Below, piece after piece: positions 2,251-15,578 of a stretch of 15,578 bases of DNA (position 1 is the first letter of the stretch; each line of letters starts with the position of its first letter). The stretch comes from a virus (lineage: Duplodnaviria > Heunggongvirae > Uroviricota > Caudoviricetes), in IMG/VR virus record IMGVR_UViG_2534682222_000014, positions 1 through 15,578 of that record; one strand, 5' to 3'. Position numbers and translations under genes: made by a program. The notes under the pieces were generated by a model, which worked only from the letters and a program-made list of their open reading frames with translations, did not search any database and was not told where the DNA came from.

Positions 2251-3246
2251 TTAAGCTGTCGCAATTACGCCGATCGCCAGTGCTCGATCAATAAAACGCA
2301 GTAGCAGCTCAAGCTGCGTACCATGCTTCTGCTCGAATGCTGGTACATCGGCGTGTAACTCGTCGTGGCACTCTCTGCACAGAGGGATCACGAAGAGGTC
2401 ATGGGCTTTTGTTGCTGTACCACCCATACCGTGCCCTACGATATGGTGCGGATCATCTGCTGGCCGTCGGCAACACTCACAGGGTTGTGTTTTAACCCAG
2501 CGGGTGTACGTCTCATTTATCCAGCGGCGACGTTTTGGCCTGAGCATAAAAGACTCTGGCGACTCCGGATCAACAGAGAGCGTGAGGATCTTCTTCGCCT
2601 TCTCCTGCACGAGTCTGGTTGCTGACGAGGAAGGCACTATGTCGCTTTCCCTCATGACAGAACGGATCTTCTCATCCGGAAGGCGCAACCCTTTGTGCGC
2701 AACGCTTTCCGGAATAACATCAGCCAGGTCGTTTCTGACCATCCACCAGCACAGTTCAGGAAGCGTCAGGATATGCGACTCGGGAAAACCAGAATCACGC
2801 CGAATGACTTCCAGAATCCAGGATACCAGGTTTCCGGCCGCTATACCTGCAAGCTGTTCGGTATGCTGCCCCGACAAAGTGTGATCGCAATGCCAGCACA
2901 GGCGAATACTTCCTGGTGGGTGCCGCATTGTTGTGAAGTTCTTGTCGTGCCACGTTGAATGTGGCCACTGGCATTCAAACCGATTACTCAACCATTGCTC
3001 AAGGGAAGGAAGCCCACCGGCACGCTGAATAACCCTCTCATTCTCGAAGACCTGACGCATTACCGGATCATCAGCTAGCGGCTGAATGGCTGCCGGAACA
3101 GCCCCGGTACTGAATGACGCCATTTCTTCTGGTTCAGGCTCGAGCAGAACGCGACCACGCATGAAGAGGTGCATCAGTTCCGTACCGGGACGGAACAGCA
3201 CAATCCCCATACGATGGGCGATCTCGGGGGTAAGCAGAGCTCTCAC
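2251..3246 (-). CDS. YdfU-like DUF968 family prophage protein with C-terminal HNH-like Cys/His motif
   Basis: C-terminus PCECCRR...HHIVGHGMGG...IPLCRECHDELH is a zinc-finger/HNH-like signature recalled from YdfU/DUF968 proteins. Start uncertain: GTG at 3246 overlaps the Rha stop as GTGA with AGGGGG 9 nt upstream; the alternative GTG at 3279 gives 342 aa. Confidence 0.5.
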   Translation of the reverse strand: MRALLTPEIAHRMGIVLFRPGTELMHLFMRGRVLLEPEPEEMASFSTGAVPAAIQPLADDPVMRQVFENERVIQRAGGLPSLEQWLSNRFECQWPHSTWHDKNFTTMRHPPGSIRLCWHCDHTLSGQHTEQLAGIAAGNLVSWILEVIRRDSGFPESHILTLPELCWWMVRNDLADVIPESVAHKGLRLPDEKIRSVMRESDIVPSSSATRLVQEKAKKILTLSVDPESPESFMLRPKRRRWINETYTRWVKTQPCECCRRPADDPHHIVGHGMGGTATKAHDLFVIPLCRECHDELHADVPAFEQKHGTQLELLLRFIDRALAIGVIATA

Positions 3247-3926
3247 GCGACCTGCCCCCTGGCAATGTGTTCTGCCCACAGTCCACCAATCCAGCGCACG
3301 CCTTTCGCCGTGAAACGTGCCTGGCTGAATGCATGATTTGAGGTTACGGATGTGCCGGTTTTCATTTCAAAACGGCCCGCATCAATATGCTGATGCCGTG
3401 GGGTCATCGTTCCGCCAAGGCGATACATGATGTCGTTCTCAAGGAGGAATAACCGCAGATCTGGCTCTTTGGCCTTAAGCAGTTTTGCCACCTGGCGGAA
3501 TGACATTGACCCACTGGCTGTACAGTACCGATCAACAAACGCTACCTTCGGCGCAGCGGCAGCCAGTTCGTTAGTCAACTGTTGTTTTTGTTCTGCAAGG
3601 TCAGCTGCAAGACGTAGGGCTTCAGAGAATGATTGAGGAATCGTCTGCTGCTGTGCCTGCTCAAGCTCCTGCCAGCGATCAACCAGACGCGCGGTAAACT
3701 CCGGCGACAGCTGCGCGACAACGATATAACTGTCCCGCTTCCCTATCAGATAAACCGATACCGACTGATTGAGGTGATTTTTAACTTCCCCCATTGGGGG
3801 GAGTTCAATAACACCGCGCTCTGCCAGGCGTTCAATGGACCGTTTAACATGGTCATGTCGTGATTCCACCAGCTCAGCAATATCGCTGCTGGACATGGTT
3901 AATGCTGTTGTTGCTAATTGGCTCAT
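3243..3926 (-). CDS. Rha-family phage regulatory protein / antirepressor (Rha N-domain plus KilA-C/ANT-like C-domain)
   Basis: ATG at 3926 preceded by GGAG 7 nt upstream (track ORF extends to 3965). N-terminal SDIAELVESRHDHVKRSIERL matches the Rha-domain signature; C-terminal half resembles antirepressor KilA-C domains. Confidence 0.7.
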   Translation of the reverse strand: MSQLATTALTMSSSDIAELVESRHDHVKRSIERLAERGVIELPPMGEVKNHLNQSVSVYLIGKRDSYIVVAQLSPEFTARLVDRWQELEQAQQQTIPQSFSEALRLAADLAEQKQQLTNELAAAAPKVAFVDRYCTASGSMSFRQVAKLLKAKEPDLRLFLLENDIMYRLGGTMTPRHQHIDAGRFEMKTGTSVTSNHAFSQARFTAKGVRWIGGLWAEHIARGQVA

Positions 3927-7421: not shown

Positions 7422-7625
7422 TTACTGCTTGTGTTGAGAATTGTTAAGTTTGCTGTAGAGAGAAGCGTCGTATTTCAACTTCCCGTTCGTAATTCTTTCA
7501 ATGTAAAGAGCCTGTTTTTCTGGGATTACTTCACCCCATTGACATACGGCACTGTGAGTTACCCCTAAGGCAACTGCGGTTTTAGAAATGCCGCCGTAGT
7601 AGTCGACGACTGTCCCTTTATGCAT
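7422..7625 (-). CDS. cro: Cro-like repressor (P22 Cro type)
   Basis: 67 aa, ATG preceded by AGAGGA. HTH segment ISKTAVALGVTHSAVCQWGEVIPEK closely resembles P22-type Cro. Divergent from the cI-like gene across a 100-bp operator region. Confidence 0.7.
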   Translation of the reverse strand: MHKGTVVDYYGGISKTAVALGVTHSAVCQWGEVIPEKQALYIERITNGKLKYDASLYSKLNNSQHKQ

Positions 7626-7725
7626 GGTTTGAATCCTCTTTAGTTAGCATTCTTACATCGTATATGGACAGCATACTTACGTCAATAAAATGTAAGATTG
7701 CTAACGTACATTCCGAGGAGATTTT
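7626..7725. promoter_or_regulatory. Divergent oR-like operator/promoter region (pR for cro, pRM for cI)
   Basis: Minus strand: TTGACG -35 (plus 7685-7680) with TATACG/TACGAT -10 candidates upstream of cro. Plus strand: TGGACA (7665-7670) and TAAAAT (7686-7691) upstream of cI. Half-site CTTAC/GTAAG at 7652-7656, 7676-7680 and 7692-7696; 9-mer ATGTAAGAT at 7690-7698. Confidence 0.5.
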
Positions 7726-8358
7726 ATGGATACCGTTGGCAGCAGACTGAGATTTAGAAGAAAGCAGAAAAAACTTACCCAGCGCGATGTGGCTGAGTGG
7801 GCAGGAGTAAGCGCGTCTGCTGTGACCCAGTGGGAAAGTGATTTAACAAAACTTTCTGGTGAGAACTTGATATTGGTGTGTAAATGCCTTCAGTGCTCGC
7901 CAGAATGGTTGGTTTTTGGTTCAGGCGATATCGAAAATGGCATTAACATCAACTTGATGTCTGCCAGAGAGGTCCCTCTCATATCATGGGTGCAAGCTGG
8001 TAATTGGACGGAAGTAATTGGAAATCCTAATAATGAACAAGTGAAAACCACTCGAAAACTTTCTGATTCCGCCTTTGCTTTGAGGGTTAAGGGAGATTCA
8101 ATGACTTCTAGCCAGGAGTTGAGTATTCCTGAAGGTTCTATTGTTATTGTTGAACCAGAGTTCGGCTTCGTGGATGAGGCAAACGGTAAAATTGTCGTTG
8201 CTCAAACGGTATCTGGTGGTGAGGCAACTTTAAAAAAGCTGGCGATAGACCCACCGTTTTCGTACCTAATCCCACTGAATCCTGCGTTTAAACCCATTGA
8301 GGTGAATCAAGAGACCAATCTAATTGGGATAGTTAAACAAATTATCATTGACCTTTAG
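7726..8358 (+). CDS. cI: cI-type prophage repressor (N-terminal XRE HTH, C-terminal LexA-like S24 peptidase)
   Basis: 210 aa, GAGGAG RBS. HTH (LTQRDVAEWAGVSASAVTQWE), Ala-Gly cleavage site (VQAGNW), Ser nucleophile in KGDSM and Lys in ATLKKL, typical of RecA-stimulated autocleaving repressors. Confidence 0.85.
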   Translation: MDTVGSRLRFRRKQKKLTQRDVAEWAGVSASAVTQWESDLTKLSGENLILVCKCLQCSPEWLVFGSGDIENGININLMSAREVPLISWVQAGNWTEVIGNPNNEQVKTTRKLSDSAFALRVKGDSMTSSQELSIPEGSIVIVEPEFGFVDEANGKIVVAQTVSGGEATLKKLAIDPPFSYLIPLNPAFKPIEVNQETNLIGIVKQIIIDL

Positions 8359-8374: not shown

Positions 8375-8402
8375 AAGCCCGCTGATCATGCGGGCTTTTT
8401 TA
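8375..8402 (+). terminator. Intrinsic terminator directly after the repressor gene
   Basis: AAGCCCGC-TGATCAT-GCGGGCTT hairpin followed by TTTTT, 17 bp after the cI stop. Not followed by a U-run on the opposite strand, so rightward only. Confidence 0.7.
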
Positions 8403-8414
8403 TGCCTGTGAAAA

Positions 8415-8469
8415 TATAGTAAGCAAACTTACAAAATAGACTTGACTGTAAATGTAAGATGTCTAATAT
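8415..8469 (+). promoter_or_regulatory. pL-like early-left promoter with operator sites
   Basis: TTGACT (8442-8447), 16-bp spacer, TAATAT (8464-8469). Near-palindromic 18-mer TAGTAAGCAAACTTACAA at 8415-8432, and ATGTAAGAT at 8452-8460 inside the spacer, identical to the 9-mer in the oR region. Confidence 0.5.
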
Positions 8470-8505: not shown

Positions 8506-8709
8506 ATGAAGATAGAGTTGGTTGTTAACGGGAAAATTACTGCTGAGTGCAGTGATGAATCGGAGTTTCTGGCATTCAATGCTGCCGTTTTTAGCGCTCT
8601 ATCGGACATGCAACTTACCCTTCATTCCGAACGAAGGGCTCGTTCAAAATCTAAAATGGCGGCCTTCAATGAGAAGTTTTTTAAAACGGATCCCACGGGT
8701 CGCAATTAA
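8506..8709 (+). CDS. Hypothetical small protein (67 aa) downstream of the pL-like promoter
   Basis: ATG at 8506 (track ORF starts at TTG 8491). AGGA lies immediately next to the ATG, so translation signals are weak. Internal basic patch HSERRARSKSK but no N-terminal Arg-rich motif, so not called N. Overlaps a convergent ORF. Confidence 0.3.
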   Translation: MKIELVVNGKITAECSDESEFLAFNAAVFSALSDMQLTLHSERRARSKSKMAAFNEKFFKTDPTGRN

Positions 8710-8914
8710 GAGAATCAAGAAGCTTAATGGTTTGATAGGTGATGGCTTCCTGTTTAACAGTGTTTTCTGGGCTTGACAGTTGATCGCGCAATAATTGTAT
8801 TTGGTTATGCAGGTCATCTGATAGTGGGCCCTCATTAGCACATATTGCAGCTGAAATGGTCTTAATCGCAGCTTCAATAGCAGTGAGTCTTAACTCAATA
8901 ATATCGTTATTCAT
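8681..8914 (-). CDS. Hypothetical small acidic helical protein (77 aa), convergent with and overlapping the previous ORF
   Basis: ATG at 8914 (MNNDIIELRLTAIEAAIKTISAAICANEGPLSDDLHNQIQLLRDQL...), embedded in a longer track ORF. Weak RBS. AT-rich. 3' end overlaps the plus-strand ORF by 29 bp. Confidence 0.3.
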   Translation of the reverse strand: MNNDIIELRLTAIEAAIKTISAAICANEGPLSDDLHNQIQLLRDQLSSPENTVKQEAITYQTIKLLDSLNCDPWDPF

Positions 8915-9183
8915 AGGTTTATCTTCTTGGCTGTGTGAGAACTCCAAGAATACCACCGAGCCTGATGTGGTGAAAAGACAGGCATAGCCCAGACGATATC
9001 TGAGTGGCTTAAAAAACAGATGGGAACCGGTGGAATCCCGGTACACAACGAAAAGAGCGCTGGCATGCAAAAAATATCTCGCAGCCGTAGCAGTACCAAA
9101 AGCCAGGATGGAACGGCAGAAACGCGGTAGTGCTCTTTTTGATGTGGTAAACCCGTAGTAGCTGTACCAGATGCTGTGTGTAG

Positions 9184-9258
9184 TCTTGGCGGTACCAGGG
9201 TCTTCAACCTTATGCAAGGGGGACGAAGATAATGTTCTACCTCGGTACCGCCCTTTTT
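9184..9258 (+). ncRNA. Long hairpin with 3' T-run; candidate terminator or processed sRNA with DicF-like ends
   Basis: Perfect 9-bp stem GGCGGTACC (9188-9196) / GGTACCGCC (9244-9252) enclosing a 47-nt loop with internal pairings (CCTT-ATGC-AAGG, TCTTC/GAAGA), followed by TTTTT (9254-9258). The 5' arm TTGGCGGTACCAG and the 3' CCGCCCTTTTT resemble my recollection of E. coli DicF. Not verified. Confidence 0.25.
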
Positions 9259-9444
9259 ACACAACAGACAAGGGCATCACCGGGCGACGGGCTCATAACC
9301 CAATCCACCCGGGCAAAAAGAAAGCGGTCTCTCAAGCCGCCGACCAATGCAGGTGCCCTTCTCTGTTGTGTATGGAGAAAGTTCGGCGGTGGCAGCCGCC
9401 TTAACTTCGTGTATGGACTAAAACCTTGTGCAGAGGAAAGTTAA

Positions 9445-10362
9445 ATGAAATTACCTAAGTTCCGTAACGCAATCGTGTACCGCGCCACACTACCTAGCAT
9501 TGAAGCTATCGAGGGGCATCTGCTTGAACTCCCCTACTCCGAGATTGGTGAAACTGAGTTTTCACGCGCCTCTTTTGTGCCAAACACGATCACTGGCGAA
9601 TTGGTCACCCCAATATCAGGTGGGTATGCCATCGTGATCCGCCATGATCAGAAAATCATTCCCCAGCATGTTGTTTTGAAGGAAGCCGCAGCACGGATCC
9701 AAAGAATCGAAGATATGTCCGGGAGTAAAATCAAACGTATCGAACGATTAGCAATTATCGACAGCGTCCGCGTTGACCTGTGTAAACGGGCATTTGTTAA
9801 ATCAACGCTGATCCTTGCGTTGTACAGCACCAACGAAAAGCTATTAGTGGTCAATACGACCAATAAAAATATTGCCGGTATGGCTGTGGCTATGCTGGTG
9901 AAAGTTGTCGGTTCCGTTAAAACAGAAACAATCAACATTAGCGATATTAAGAACGGTTTAACTACGCGGTTGAAAAACTATATCAATGGCGTGGCCAATG
10001 CTTTTGAAGGGTTTACCGTCGGCAATTATATCCAGCTGTCCCGCCTTGCCGATCAAAATGAAGTTATTCGCTACTCAGCTGAACACGACTCAATTCAAAG
10101 CGAGCTAGTTGATAGCCTTAATAGCGGCTTTACCGCTGATAAAATGGAGCTAGCAGGATGCGGTGTATCGTTCATCCTCACCGAAAATTTCCATTTTTCG
10201 CGCATCAATACCCAAGCCCAAACATTCAACGATGAAGATGATAAAGCATTTCAATGGCGCCATCAGGCCGGGACGGATCTACTCCAATTCAGCAAAGTAG
10301 TAAACCTGATGTGTGATCTTCTTTCGTACAAAGAAGAACAGCCACAAAAACCCGCAGCCTAA
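9445..10362 (+). CDS. rdgC: RdgC-like recombination-associated protein
   Basis: 305 aa, GAGGAAA RBS. N-terminal FRNAIVYR and GYAIVIRHDQKIIPQHVVLKEAAARIQRIE align by eye with E. coli RdgC ([37 protein letters not shown]); length matches. Confidence 0.65.
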   Translation: MKLPKFRNAIVYRATLPSIEAIEGHLLELPYSEIGETEFSRASFVPNTITGELVTPISGGYAIVIRHDQKIIPQHVVLKEAAARIQRIEDMSGSKIKRIERLAIIDSVRVDLCKRAFVKSTLILALYSTNEKLLVVNTTNKNIAGMAVAMLVKVVGSVKTETINISDIKNGLTTRLKNYINGVANAFEGFTVGNYIQLSRLADQNEVIRYSAEHDSIQSELVDSLNSGFTADKMELAGCGVSFILTENFHFSRINTQAQTFNDEDDKAFQWRHQAGTDLLQFSKVVNLMCDLLSYKEEQPQKPAA

Positions 10363-14264: not shown

Positions 14265-15578
14265 ATGGATAAAGTCACATATCCAACAGGCGTCGAAAAC
14301 CACGGTGGCACATTACGCATCTGGTTTAATTTTAAAGGTAAGCGTGTCAGGGAAAGTCTCGGTGTCCCTGACACCGCTAAGAACAGAAAGGTAGCCGGGG
14401 AACTGCGGACATCAGTATGTTTTGCCATCCGCACAGGAACCTTTGATTATGCAACCCAGTTTCCTGACTCCCCTAACCTCAAGGCTTTTGGTGTAAGTAA
14501 AAAAGACATTACAGTGAAAGAACTTGAAGAAAAATGGCTGGATCTGAAACGGATGGAAATCTGCGCGAACGCATTCAATCGCTATGAATCTGTCGCAAGG
14601 AATATGGTGCCGAGGATCGGAGGTAATCGCCTGGTGTCAGCAGTAACCAAAGAGGAATTGCTGTATCTTAGGAAAGATTTGCTAACTGGTTATCAGAGTC
14701 CGACGAAAAATAAAGCCCCGGCAAAAGGGCGAAGCGTTGTTACTGTGAACTATTACATGACGACAATGGCCGGAATGTTTCAGTTTGCTGCGGATCACGG
14801 TTACTTAGAGGTGAACCCATTCGAGGGAATTAAACCTCTGAAAAAAGCCAGGGCAGAACCAGATCCTCTGTCTCGTGATGAATTTATTCGCCTGATAGAT
14901 GCATGCCGGCATCAGCAGACGAAAAACCTGTGGTCATTAGCAGTGTACACAGGAATGCGTCACGGGGAACTGGTCTCCCTGGCCTGGGAAGATATCGACC
15001 TGAAGGCGGGAACAATTACCGTCAGGCGTAATTATACGAAACTTGGTGAGTTCACTCTACCGAAAACCGAGGCAAGTACAGATCGAGTGGTGCATCTTAT
15101 CCAGCCCGCAATCAGTATCCTGAAAAATCAGGCTGAAATGACAAGGCTGGGCAGGCAATATCACATTGAAGTGCAGTTACGTGAGTACGGTCGTTCGGTG
15201 AACCATGAGTGTACATTCGTCTTTAACCCGCATGTGGTCAGACGCAGTAAGCAGGTCGGATTTATCTACCGGGTCGATTCAGTAGGCGACTCATGGGAAG
15301 CTGCACTAAAGCGCGCGGGGATCAGACACAGAAAGGCGTACCAGTCACGACATACCTATGCGTGCTGGTCATTATCTGCTGGTGCAAACCCGAGTTTTAT
15401 TGCCAGTCAGATGGGGCATGCGAGCGCGCAGATGGTGTTCAATGTTTACGGTGCATGGATGGCTGACAGCAGCGCAGAGCAGATCGCAATGCTGAATCAG
15501 AAGCTGGCAGATTTTGCCCCATTGATGCCCCATAGCCACGAGAGCAGTACGGGAGGATTATTAAAATCAGTAAGTTAA
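14265..15578 (+). CDS. int: Tyrosine site-specific integrase (IntR/DLP12-type N-terminal arm-binding domain)
   Basis: 437 aa, GGAGGT RBS. N-terminus TGVENHGGTLRIWFNFKGKRVRESLG...GTFDYATQFPDS matches Rac/DLP12-type integrases. C-terminal catalytic region shows R...HxxR...Y-context (RHTYACW, GHASAQMVFNVYGAW). Stop TAA at 15576-15578. Confidence 0.9.
   Translation: MDKVTYPTGVENHGGTLRIWFNFKGKRVRESLGVPDTAKNRKVAGELRTSVCFAIRTGTFDYATQFPDSPNLKAFGVSKKDITVKELEEKWLDLKRMEICANAFNRYESVARNMVPRIGGNRLVSAVTKEELLYLRKDLLTGYQSPTKNKAPAKGRSVVTVNYYMTTMAGMFQFAADHGYLEVNPFEGIKPLKKARAEPDPLSRDEFIRLIDACRHQQTKNLWSLAVYTGMRHGELVSLAWEDIDLKAGTITVRRNYTKLGEFTLPKTEASTDRVVHLIQPAISILKNQAEMTRLGRQYHIEVQLREYGRSVNHECTFVFNPHVVRRSKQVGFIYRVDSVGDSWEAALKRAGIRHRKAYQSRHTYACWSLSAGANPSFIASQMGHASAQMVFNVYGAWMADSSAEQIAMLNQKLADFAPLMPHSHESSTGGLLKSVS

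Follow-up and report, generated by a model that had tools for sequence, protein, structure and literature searches.

Organization of the early-left region

The window, the whole stretch of 15,578 nucleotides that was analysed, is a lambdoid prophage of E. coli and is 100% identical to NZ_LR536430. The immunity region and the sequence next to it contain the following features:

7422–7625, minus strand: Cro-like gene of the immunity region
7643–7658 and 7690–7705 (between cro and cI) and 8450–8466 (third copy): operator word of the TTAGCAnnCTTACAT type, from a repeat search
7726–8358, plus strand: LexA/cI-like repressor gene, with Peptidase_S24 and HTH domains (Pfam)
8375–8397: strong terminator closing the repressor gene, from a promoter/terminator scan
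8442–8469, plus strand: candidate early-left (pL/dicBp-like) promoter, TTGACT-16-TAATAT, just after the repressor terminator, from the scan

The third copy of the immunity operator overlaps the candidate promoter and, by likeness to dicBp and to the pL of e14, the element at 8442–8469 is read as a candidate repressor-controlled early-left promoter. The genes from this point to the integrase (from rdgC at 9445 onwards to xis and int at 14265) all lie on the plus strand, with the exception of an annotated minus-strand ORF at 8681–8914. This ORF converges and overlaps with a plus-strand ORF at 8506–8709, the two lying between the candidate promoter and the RNA leader described below; RefSeq annotates only the minus-strand one, and a Pfam search found no family for either. 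The plus-strand ORF encodes 67 amino acids, has AGGA ahead of its ATG and occupies the position of ydfA/ymfJ. In the identical genome, the 530 nt from 8915 to 9444 carry no RefSeq annotation, and the region under study (9038–9252) falls inside this gap. A conserved module at 8935–8985, CTTCTTGGNTGTGTGAGAACTCCAAGAATACCACCGAGCCTGATGTGGTGAAAAGACAGGCA, adjoins differing minus-strand small ORFs in many phages, and the small RNA described below comes directly after it in some phages. On the minus strand this module reads TTCACC-16-TATTCT, a sequence that may serve as the promoter of the divergent moron gene 8681–8914.

GTAC words and the RNA modules that contain them

The initial annotation described 9038–9252 as a cluster of GTAC-centred short repeats and took them for degenerate repeated binding or structural units. 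The five GTAC words are present in the quoted contexts at 9041, 9093, 9164, 9192 and 9245, as are two GCGGTA words (9124 and 9189) and a boxA-like word, TGCTCTTTTT (9131–9140); in a further related pair, CCGTAG(C/T)AG, CCGTAGTAG lies at 9153 as reported, and CCGTAGCAG begins at 9085 and not at 9086. With 41 GTACs in the whole window, 0.57 are expected per 215 nt, and local-dinucleotide shuffles contain a mean of 1.3. Five GTACs were reached in 7 of 5000 local shuffles, and at least five within a 204-nt span in 55 of 2000 whole-window dinucleotide shuffles (2.75%). The word was chosen after the sequence had been seen and is 12th of the 256 four-letter words by its tightest cluster in the window, which removes the significance of these values. 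The GTACs at 9192 and 9245 are, moreover, the two arms of one hairpin and count as one event; when four independent events are assumed, 22% of the whole-window shuffles equal the cluster. The enrichment is thus real as a count and marginal as an excess.

These shuffles, together with the rank of the word, would be compatible with a cluster that is pure coincidence in unremarkable intergenic DNA, and coincidence does account for the GTAC in each of three further modules. As a reading of the region as a whole it is nevertheless improbable, with a small residual chance, because the folding z-scores are strongly negative, the sequence covaries and is conserved in hundreds of genomes, and the structure explains two of the five GTACs.

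Comparison with relatives shows that the cluster is not conserved. The 91 distinct frames of 215 nt that are homologous contain on average 1.6 GTACs, nearly all from the terminator hairpin of the small RNA; in the 135 nt that precede the small RNA the figure is 0.41 against a background of about 0.32, and the window is alone among the 91 in having five in one frame. The initial annotation held that its proposal would fall if shuffles left the enrichment insignificant or if the motifs were absent from orthologous regions, and it is undone on its own terms by the marginal shuffles and the non-conservation.

The same comparison bears on the idea that the words are degenerate, repeated DNA sites bound by a regulator of the phage, be it cI-like, Cro-like or Rha/Ant, or by another DNA-binding protein. 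Five GTACs within 208 bp, four of them as GTACC, the low count in local shuffles and the fact that the early-left operators of e14 happen to contain GTACC speak for such sites. Against them, the operator word of this phage is unlike the GTAC contexts and is located elsewhere, the sites are not conserved at homologous positions, and those in the stem change by compensating pairs, so that the RNA pairing is kept and not the DNA word. Upstream of the hairpin, the 91 relatives show no enrichment of GTAC, and its presence in one module does not go with its presence in another. Successive sites are 52, 71, 28 and 53 bp apart, without regularity, and the conserved word, conserved positions and regular spacing of operators or iterons were not found. 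We therefore regard DNA sites as very improbable.

The plus-strand RNA, by contrast with its shuffled versions, is strongly structured, with z = -3.9 for 8920–9445 and z = -3.0 for 9020–9262. All five GTACs are located within stems or at their edges, which is unsurprising for a word that equals its own reverse complement and is therefore easily accommodated in stems. The folded leader consists of the following elements:

9026–9042, plus strand: small hairpin (ACCGG-U-G, GAAU loop, CCCGGU) at the end of the upstream conserved module, from the fold
9044–9146, plus strand: long branched hairpin, here called module A, from an inverted repeat and folds
9147–9172, plus strand: 26-nt linker, GUAAACCCGUAGUAGCUGUACCAGAU, ending just before the conserved 5' part of the small RNA
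9173–9258, plus strand: DicF-like small-RNA unit of 86 nt, from folds, covariation and a weak Rfam match
9173–9187, plus strand: conserved single-stranded 5' part of the unit, GCUGUGUGUAGUCUU, 15 nt
9188–9196, extended to 9199, plus strand: 5' arm of the terminator hairpin, GGCGGUACC, holding GTAC no. 4
9244–9252, extended from 9240, plus strand: 3' arm of the hairpin, GGUACCGCC, holding GTAC no. 5
9254–9258, plus strand: U5, preceded by a C and forming an intrinsic terminator with the hairpin
9259–9372, plus strand: three-way-junction RNA of about 115 nt, directly after the small-RNA terminator (z = -4.6)

GTAC no. 1 (9041–9044) reaches from the last two pairs of the small hairpin across a single unpaired A to the base with which the next stem begins. 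The closing pair of this hairpin, A9026-U9042, is G-C in 15 of 17 homologs (for example L004), a compensatory change by which the word becomes GCAC. GTAC no. 2 (9093) is located in the variable apical part of module A. The 17-bp basal stem of this module is formed by 9044–9061 and 9129–9146 (CACAACGAAAAGAGCGCU and AGUGCUCUUUUUGAUGUG), with CACAACGAAAAGAGCGC pairing to GUGCUCUUUUUGAUGUG. Copies of module A that are 92–96% identical are found in E. coli and Klebsiella phages, and the same basal stem of 17–20 bp (CACAAC.GAAAGAGC... / ...GCUCUUUC.GUUGUG) is built, in different phages, around at least five apical inserts that are unrelated to one another, among them one with a tRNA T-arm-like GGCGGTTCGACTCCGC. 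CACAAC/GTTGTG words likewise mark the beginnings and ends of neighbouring modules, much like boundaries at which modules are exchanged. GTAC no. 3 (9164) lies within a near-palindrome of the linker, CUGUACCAG; about 13 other loci have the same linker word in front of the small RNA, most of them with a stem devoid of GTAC, and a linker with GTACC is not associated with a GGTACC stem (odds ratio 1.0, Fisher p = 1.0).

The GTACs thus belong to four unrelated modules, which occur independently in relatives, and GTAC-centred binding units are not what the region contains; of the original description, structural units survive in a loose sense. The lack of upstream enrichment and the replacement of the stem GTACs by compensating pairs argue that GTAC is not a repeated binding unit and, as far as the sequence goes, the five words are incidental. 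They would be by-products, two as the arms of the terminator and three in unrelated modules that are united by this mosaic.

The boxA-like word among them is the 3' arm of the module A stem, with its partner AAAAGAGCG at 9051–9059. Qin has GUGCGCUUCC as the corresponding arm, a word without likeness to boxA, and a matching change in the partner arm; GUGCGCUUCC also replaces the boxA-like word, with a compensating partner, in other Qin-type relatives. The rrn boxA consensus is UGCUCUUUAACAA, and GUGCUCUUU in the window (9130–9138) matches UGCUCUUU, the first eight letters of that consensus, and the leader of an early operon is a place where nut sites occur. Unlike boxA, which acts single-stranded, the word is paired in a 17-bp stem; the bases after it are UUGAUG and not AACAA, and no N-like gene or boxB-like partner adjoins it. 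A conserved single-stranded word of the CGCUCUUUAACAA type with a boxB hairpin, as expected of a nut-site boxA, was not found at this position. Because the word is paired, and is replaced in Qin-type relatives with a matching change of its partner, it is unlikely to be a functional boxA. Two other phages (L067 and L111) provide an example of a real boxA in this setting, with a true CGCTCTTTAACAA just after the small RNA. The small RNA is there followed at once by CGCTCTTTAACA, a canonical boxA, which places the terminator just upstream of a nut-type site in N-type lambdoid phages.

The small-RNA unit and its relation to DicF

The terminator hairpin and U5 are present in the minimum-energy and centroid folds, in short and long contexts, with a U-run just five long. 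The core of the unit, GCTGTGTGNAGTCNTGGCGG, occurs in at least 120 IMG/VR viral contigs, and 55 unique sequences with 13 stem types all place the hairpin and U-run behind an unpaired 15-nt 5' part. GGTACC is found in the stem at 60 of 124 loci; other stems include CATCAG/CTGATG, TCGGCA/TGTCGA, TGGCAG/CTGACCA and TTATCC/GGATAA, so that in about half of the loci the GTACs are replaced by CATC/GATG, TCGG/CGAC, TGGC/CCAC and others. Within the terminator loop (9216–9234), three different long-stem versions share an apical insert with an SD-like word (AGGAGG/AAGGGGGA) followed by AUAAUG; an ORF starting at this AUG is not conserved.

In an alignment of the 55 sequences (A2), 87.9% of the cells are paired, compared with 74.2% in shuffles and 28–58% in slid controls, and 82 cells show a double change against 31 in shuffles, a value reached in none of 500 shuffles. 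The compensating changes in the stem mean that pairing is conserved and not GTAC, and the frequent G-U pairs fit only an RNA of the plus strand. The conserved 5' part was built into the search pattern and its invariance in the collected set is therefore partly circular, but independently collected matches do include it, at 53–61 bits. A family model built without DicF (R1) scores 60.4 bits on the window unit; it also gives a weak match elsewhere in the window, at 8542–8591 (9.5 bits, E = 0.15). We consider it likely that 9038–9252 is a non-coding structured RNA of the plus strand, which forms part of the early-left leader and ends in the 86-nt DicF-type small RNA, and that it is not a set of DNA binding sites.

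Open reading frames do cross the region, at 8681–9217 or 8911–9264 on the minus strand and at 9171–9404 or 9232–9444 on the plus strand, and the repeated words could in principle be codon repeats. The corresponding stretches of e14, SfII and an E. coli prophage (L002) are annotated as 'YmfH', 'SfII_35' and hypothetical proteins, and an SD-like AAGGGGGA lies ahead of the ATG at 9232. By contrast, none of the overlapping ORFs has a Pfam match, and the ORF at 9232–9444 shifts its frame and its length (2 to 133 amino acids) among close relatives and is absent from most members of the family. Substitutions follow base-pairing, and RefSeq leaves the whole gap unannotated. A coding function is the least probable of the readings that we weighed and is scarcely credible.

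A regulatory role of the GTAC words within the RNA was also considered. In a GGUACC-type attenuator, GCUGUACCAG (9161–9170) would compete with GCGGUACCAG (9189–9198) of the 5' arm for the 3' arm and thereby tune read-through into the genes from rdgC to int. The two words form a 9-of-10 direct repeat 28 nt apart and, by hand pairing, the upstream copy could make nine pairs with the 3' arm if a single mismatch and a single bulge are allowed; the downstream early genes do need read-through of the terminator. Nevertheless, the terminator hairpin, with 12 pairs, wins in every fold, and hand pairing gives the upstream copy at most five pairs with the 5' arm, which it thus cannot sequester. In most relatives with this linker, the stem that follows lacks GTAC (TCGGCA, TGGCAG) and offers no such pairing, in keeping with the absence of association noted above. 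Attenuation of this kind is accordingly very unlikely, and we retain the structured leader with a terminal small RNA as the preferred reading.

The unit has the architecture of DicF, in which a single strand ending in UUGGCGG precedes a 3' stem-loop with a U-run: a 5' part of about 15 nt ending in UUGGCGG, a hairpin and then CCGCCCUUUUU follow one another. It also shares the location of DicF in a repressor-controlled early operon, behind a structured leader with an RNase III hairpin whose cleavage is here a prediction. The Rfam model of DicF (RF00039) gives 16.6 bits (E = 0.84) on window positions 9175–9253 and 28.5 bits on the e14 copy, which has a short hairpin, both below the gathering cut-off of 48 bits, whereas true DicF scores 76.7 bits. 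R1 in turn detects K-12 DicF with 20.7 bits (E ~1e-4, a rough value), over the UUGGCGG-hairpin-CCGCCCUUUUU part only (positions 14–62). The hairpin of one family member (L083) is almost base for base that of DicF, GGCGGUAUCAG...CUGCUCUACCGCCCUUUUU, and the independently collected matches include 5' parts that are intermediate between the family and DicF, such as UUCUGUGUUGUUUUGGCGG.

The two RNAs differ in their 5' parts, GCUGUGUGUAGUC in the window unit and UUUCUGGUGACGU in DicF, and in the size of the hairpin, which is 65 nt in the window compared with about 38 in DicF. DicF pairs with ftsZ through its 3' part (PMC5069750), and the corresponding part is hypervariable in the window family. 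By sequence, the unit is taken to be a distant relative of DicF with a different, conserved 5' part; the score far below the cut-off and the differing 5' part mean that the function of DicF is not transferable to it. With RNAduplex, the window RNA pairs with ftsZ (-80 to +40) no better than shuffles do, 87% of which are at least as good, and the DicF control is likewise not separated from its shuffles. Complements of the conserved 5' part occur at random expectation in about 2.3 Mb of related phage loci. A pairing of GCUGUGUG of the small RNA with the leader of the minus-strand ORF (8939–8946) was rejected, as its 8 bp are at chance level for an 8-mer in 31 kb.

The surroundings of the unit repeat the order of Qin, that is, repressor, operator promoter, small ORFs, structured RNA, small RNA, more structured RNA and early genes. 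In Qin, dicA and the operator-controlled dicBp are followed by ydfABC, about 340 nt of structured RNA, dicF, an STnc100-like RNA and dicB; the gene downstream in the window is, by contrast, rdgC and not dicB.

STnc100 (RF02076), a structured RNA carried by prophages, is found in the same leader of relatives. It immediately precedes the small RNA in SfII (39.5 bits) and in e14 (29.2 bits), and in Qin (34.1 bits) it comes right after DicF; all three scores are below the Rfam cut-off of 47. The 3' end of the STnc100 model aligns to the terminator hairpin of the small RNA. The window differs in that it lacks the STnc100 body, with the modules at 8963–9043 and 9044–9146 standing in its place, and STnc100 gave no match in 8700–9500 at E up to 10. 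At gathering cut-offs, Rfam finds nothing in the whole window; an FMN aptamer fragment at 8967–9044 (17.9 bits against a cut-off of 66) and a hairpin ribozyme, both listed at E up to 10, were discarded as chance-level matches.

Proposed processing of the leader

DicF is cut from the dicBp transcript by RNase III, which yields a 190-nt form, and by RNase E, which yields the 53-nt form, and its 3' end is made by intrinsic termination (10.1101/2023.04.14.536235; PMC5069750). Binding of Hfq is likewise known for DicF. The Qin locus (L243) contains a long hairpin at 1673–1758 that is the counterpart of module A. Counting 190 nt back from the terminator would place the RNase III end of Qin in the 3' arm of this hairpin, GUGCGCUUCCGGUUGUGG, which corresponds to GUGCUCUUUUUGAUGUGG in the window; the 5' arms are CAUAACGCGAAAGCGCAUGG in Qin and CACAACGAAAAGAGCGCUGGC in the window. 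From this correspondence we infer that module A is the RNase III entry and the linker the RNase E site. The module A stem is accordingly by analogy a candidate RNase III processing stem, and the linker at 9147–9172 a candidate single-stranded region for RNase E entry or cleavage.

In the mechanism that we propose, transcription from the putative repressor-controlled promoter near 8442–8469 would run through a series of RNA hairpin modules, each exchangeable independently of the others, and this series would end in the 86-nt DicF-type small RNA, with its 3' end set by its own intrinsic terminator. By analogy with Qin dicBF, RNase III would cut the long stem (9044–9061/9129–9146) and RNase E would then cut the A/U-rich linker just 5' of GCUGUG, the expected species being about 120–130 nt and about 86 nt. 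Once released, the small RNA would base-pair with an mRNA through its conserved, unpaired 5' part of 15 nt, probably together with Hfq. Several observations count against this scheme. The minus-strand ORF 8681–8914 lies between the candidate promoter and the region, so that the transcript would run antisense through it, the U-run has a length of only five, and no complementary target was found in ftsZ or in the related phage DNA searched.

A wider proposal, which we put forward as speculative and rather doubtful, is that the early-left leader of e14/SfV/SfII-type prophages is an array of RNA cargo cassettes. The CACAAC...GUUGUG stems would be RNase III-cleavable holders for interchangeable apical RNAs (structured modules, a tRNA-like T-arm, tRNA-Arg and STnc100), and the array would always end in a small RNA of the DicF superfamily. 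The conserved 5' part GCUGUGUGUAGUC would have as its target a host mRNA that is likewise conserved and is not that of ftsZ, and ymfH would be three RNAs (STnc100-like, small RNA and three-way junction) and no protein gene.

Distribution and annotation of the family

The region is a mosaic, as is best seen in the prophage L002, which is 96% identical to the window over 8924–9147 and reads GTGC and GCAC at the positions of GTAC nos. 1 and 2. In place of the linker, L002 carries a tRNA-Arg (3221–3297, 67.4 bits), followed by the same small-RNA unit with a shorter hairpin. A tRNA-Arg in the early-left leader is found exactly at the linker site in L002 and in several IMG/VR loci; lambdoid phages normally carry their tRNAs in the late region, and tRNA cargo in an early operon is unusual. 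Neither ARAGORN nor the Rfam tRNA model finds a tRNA in the window, and a degraded tRNA at the linker is unsupported, as ARAGORN gives no match there despite the tRNA-Arg of the relatives.

Of 5426 complete E. coli genomes, 695 (about 13%), K-12 included, contain a 28-nt core of the small RNA at 100% identity. Full-length R1 copies occur in about 31 species-representative genomes of Enterobacterales, in genera that include Escherichia, Shigella, Citrobacter, Enterobacter, Klebsiella, Raoultella, Buttiauxella, Erwinia and Mixta, and the family is found in prophages of at least 14 enterobacterial genera. It matches no Rfam family at threshold and has no RefSeq annotation. In e14 of K-12, ymfH (b1142; L245, NC_000913.3 1,201,069–1,201,380) overlies the STnc100-like RNA, the small RNA at about 1,201,204–1,201,265 on the minus strand and the three-way-junction RNA, and this ORF probably reflects the mis-annotation of a non-coding region; the same likely holds for SfII_35 and for hypothetical proteins that cover the leader in other genomes. 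These likely false protein annotations are flagged here for ymfH, SfII_35 and the hypothetical proteins over the leader.

The element is of an ordinary kind, a prophage small RNA with processing hairpins, in an undescribed variant, that is, a DicF relative with a different conserved 5' part, for which a Pas or EHEC name may already exist. Literature searches (with the seed, ymfH sRNA, and DicF with e14) returned no description of this RNA, within an incomplete coverage. The family may be identical to PasB, to another Pas RNA or to an EHEC prophage small RNA; the text of the Pas/STnc100 preprint gives no sequences. Faubladier and Bouché reportedly described dicF-like prophage sequences in 1994. 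Few prophage small RNAs have, like DicF, proven effects on the division, metabolism and virulence of the host, and a sister family with a different seed would offer a test case for the diversification of such RNAs. The conserved terminator base, with swappable stems and seeds, suggests a route by which this could occur. The GTAC cluster itself is of no import except as a pointer to this widespread, unannotated relative of DicF.

The hairpin that the initial annotation placed downstream of the cluster is probably the three-way-junction RNA at 9259–9372, which lies outside 9038–9252. It consists of a long basal stem with one conserved and one variable hairpin, and RNAalifold on 21 sequences predicts 33 pairs, 10 of them with compensatory changes. 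No Rfam family matches this RNA, and it could be a protein-binding or antitermination-type leader element. The stretch matches about 330 E. coli genomes. It is followed by a conserved GGAGAAA and then by a small hairpin at 9385–9400, the stem of which covaries while its loop stays KGCA-like.
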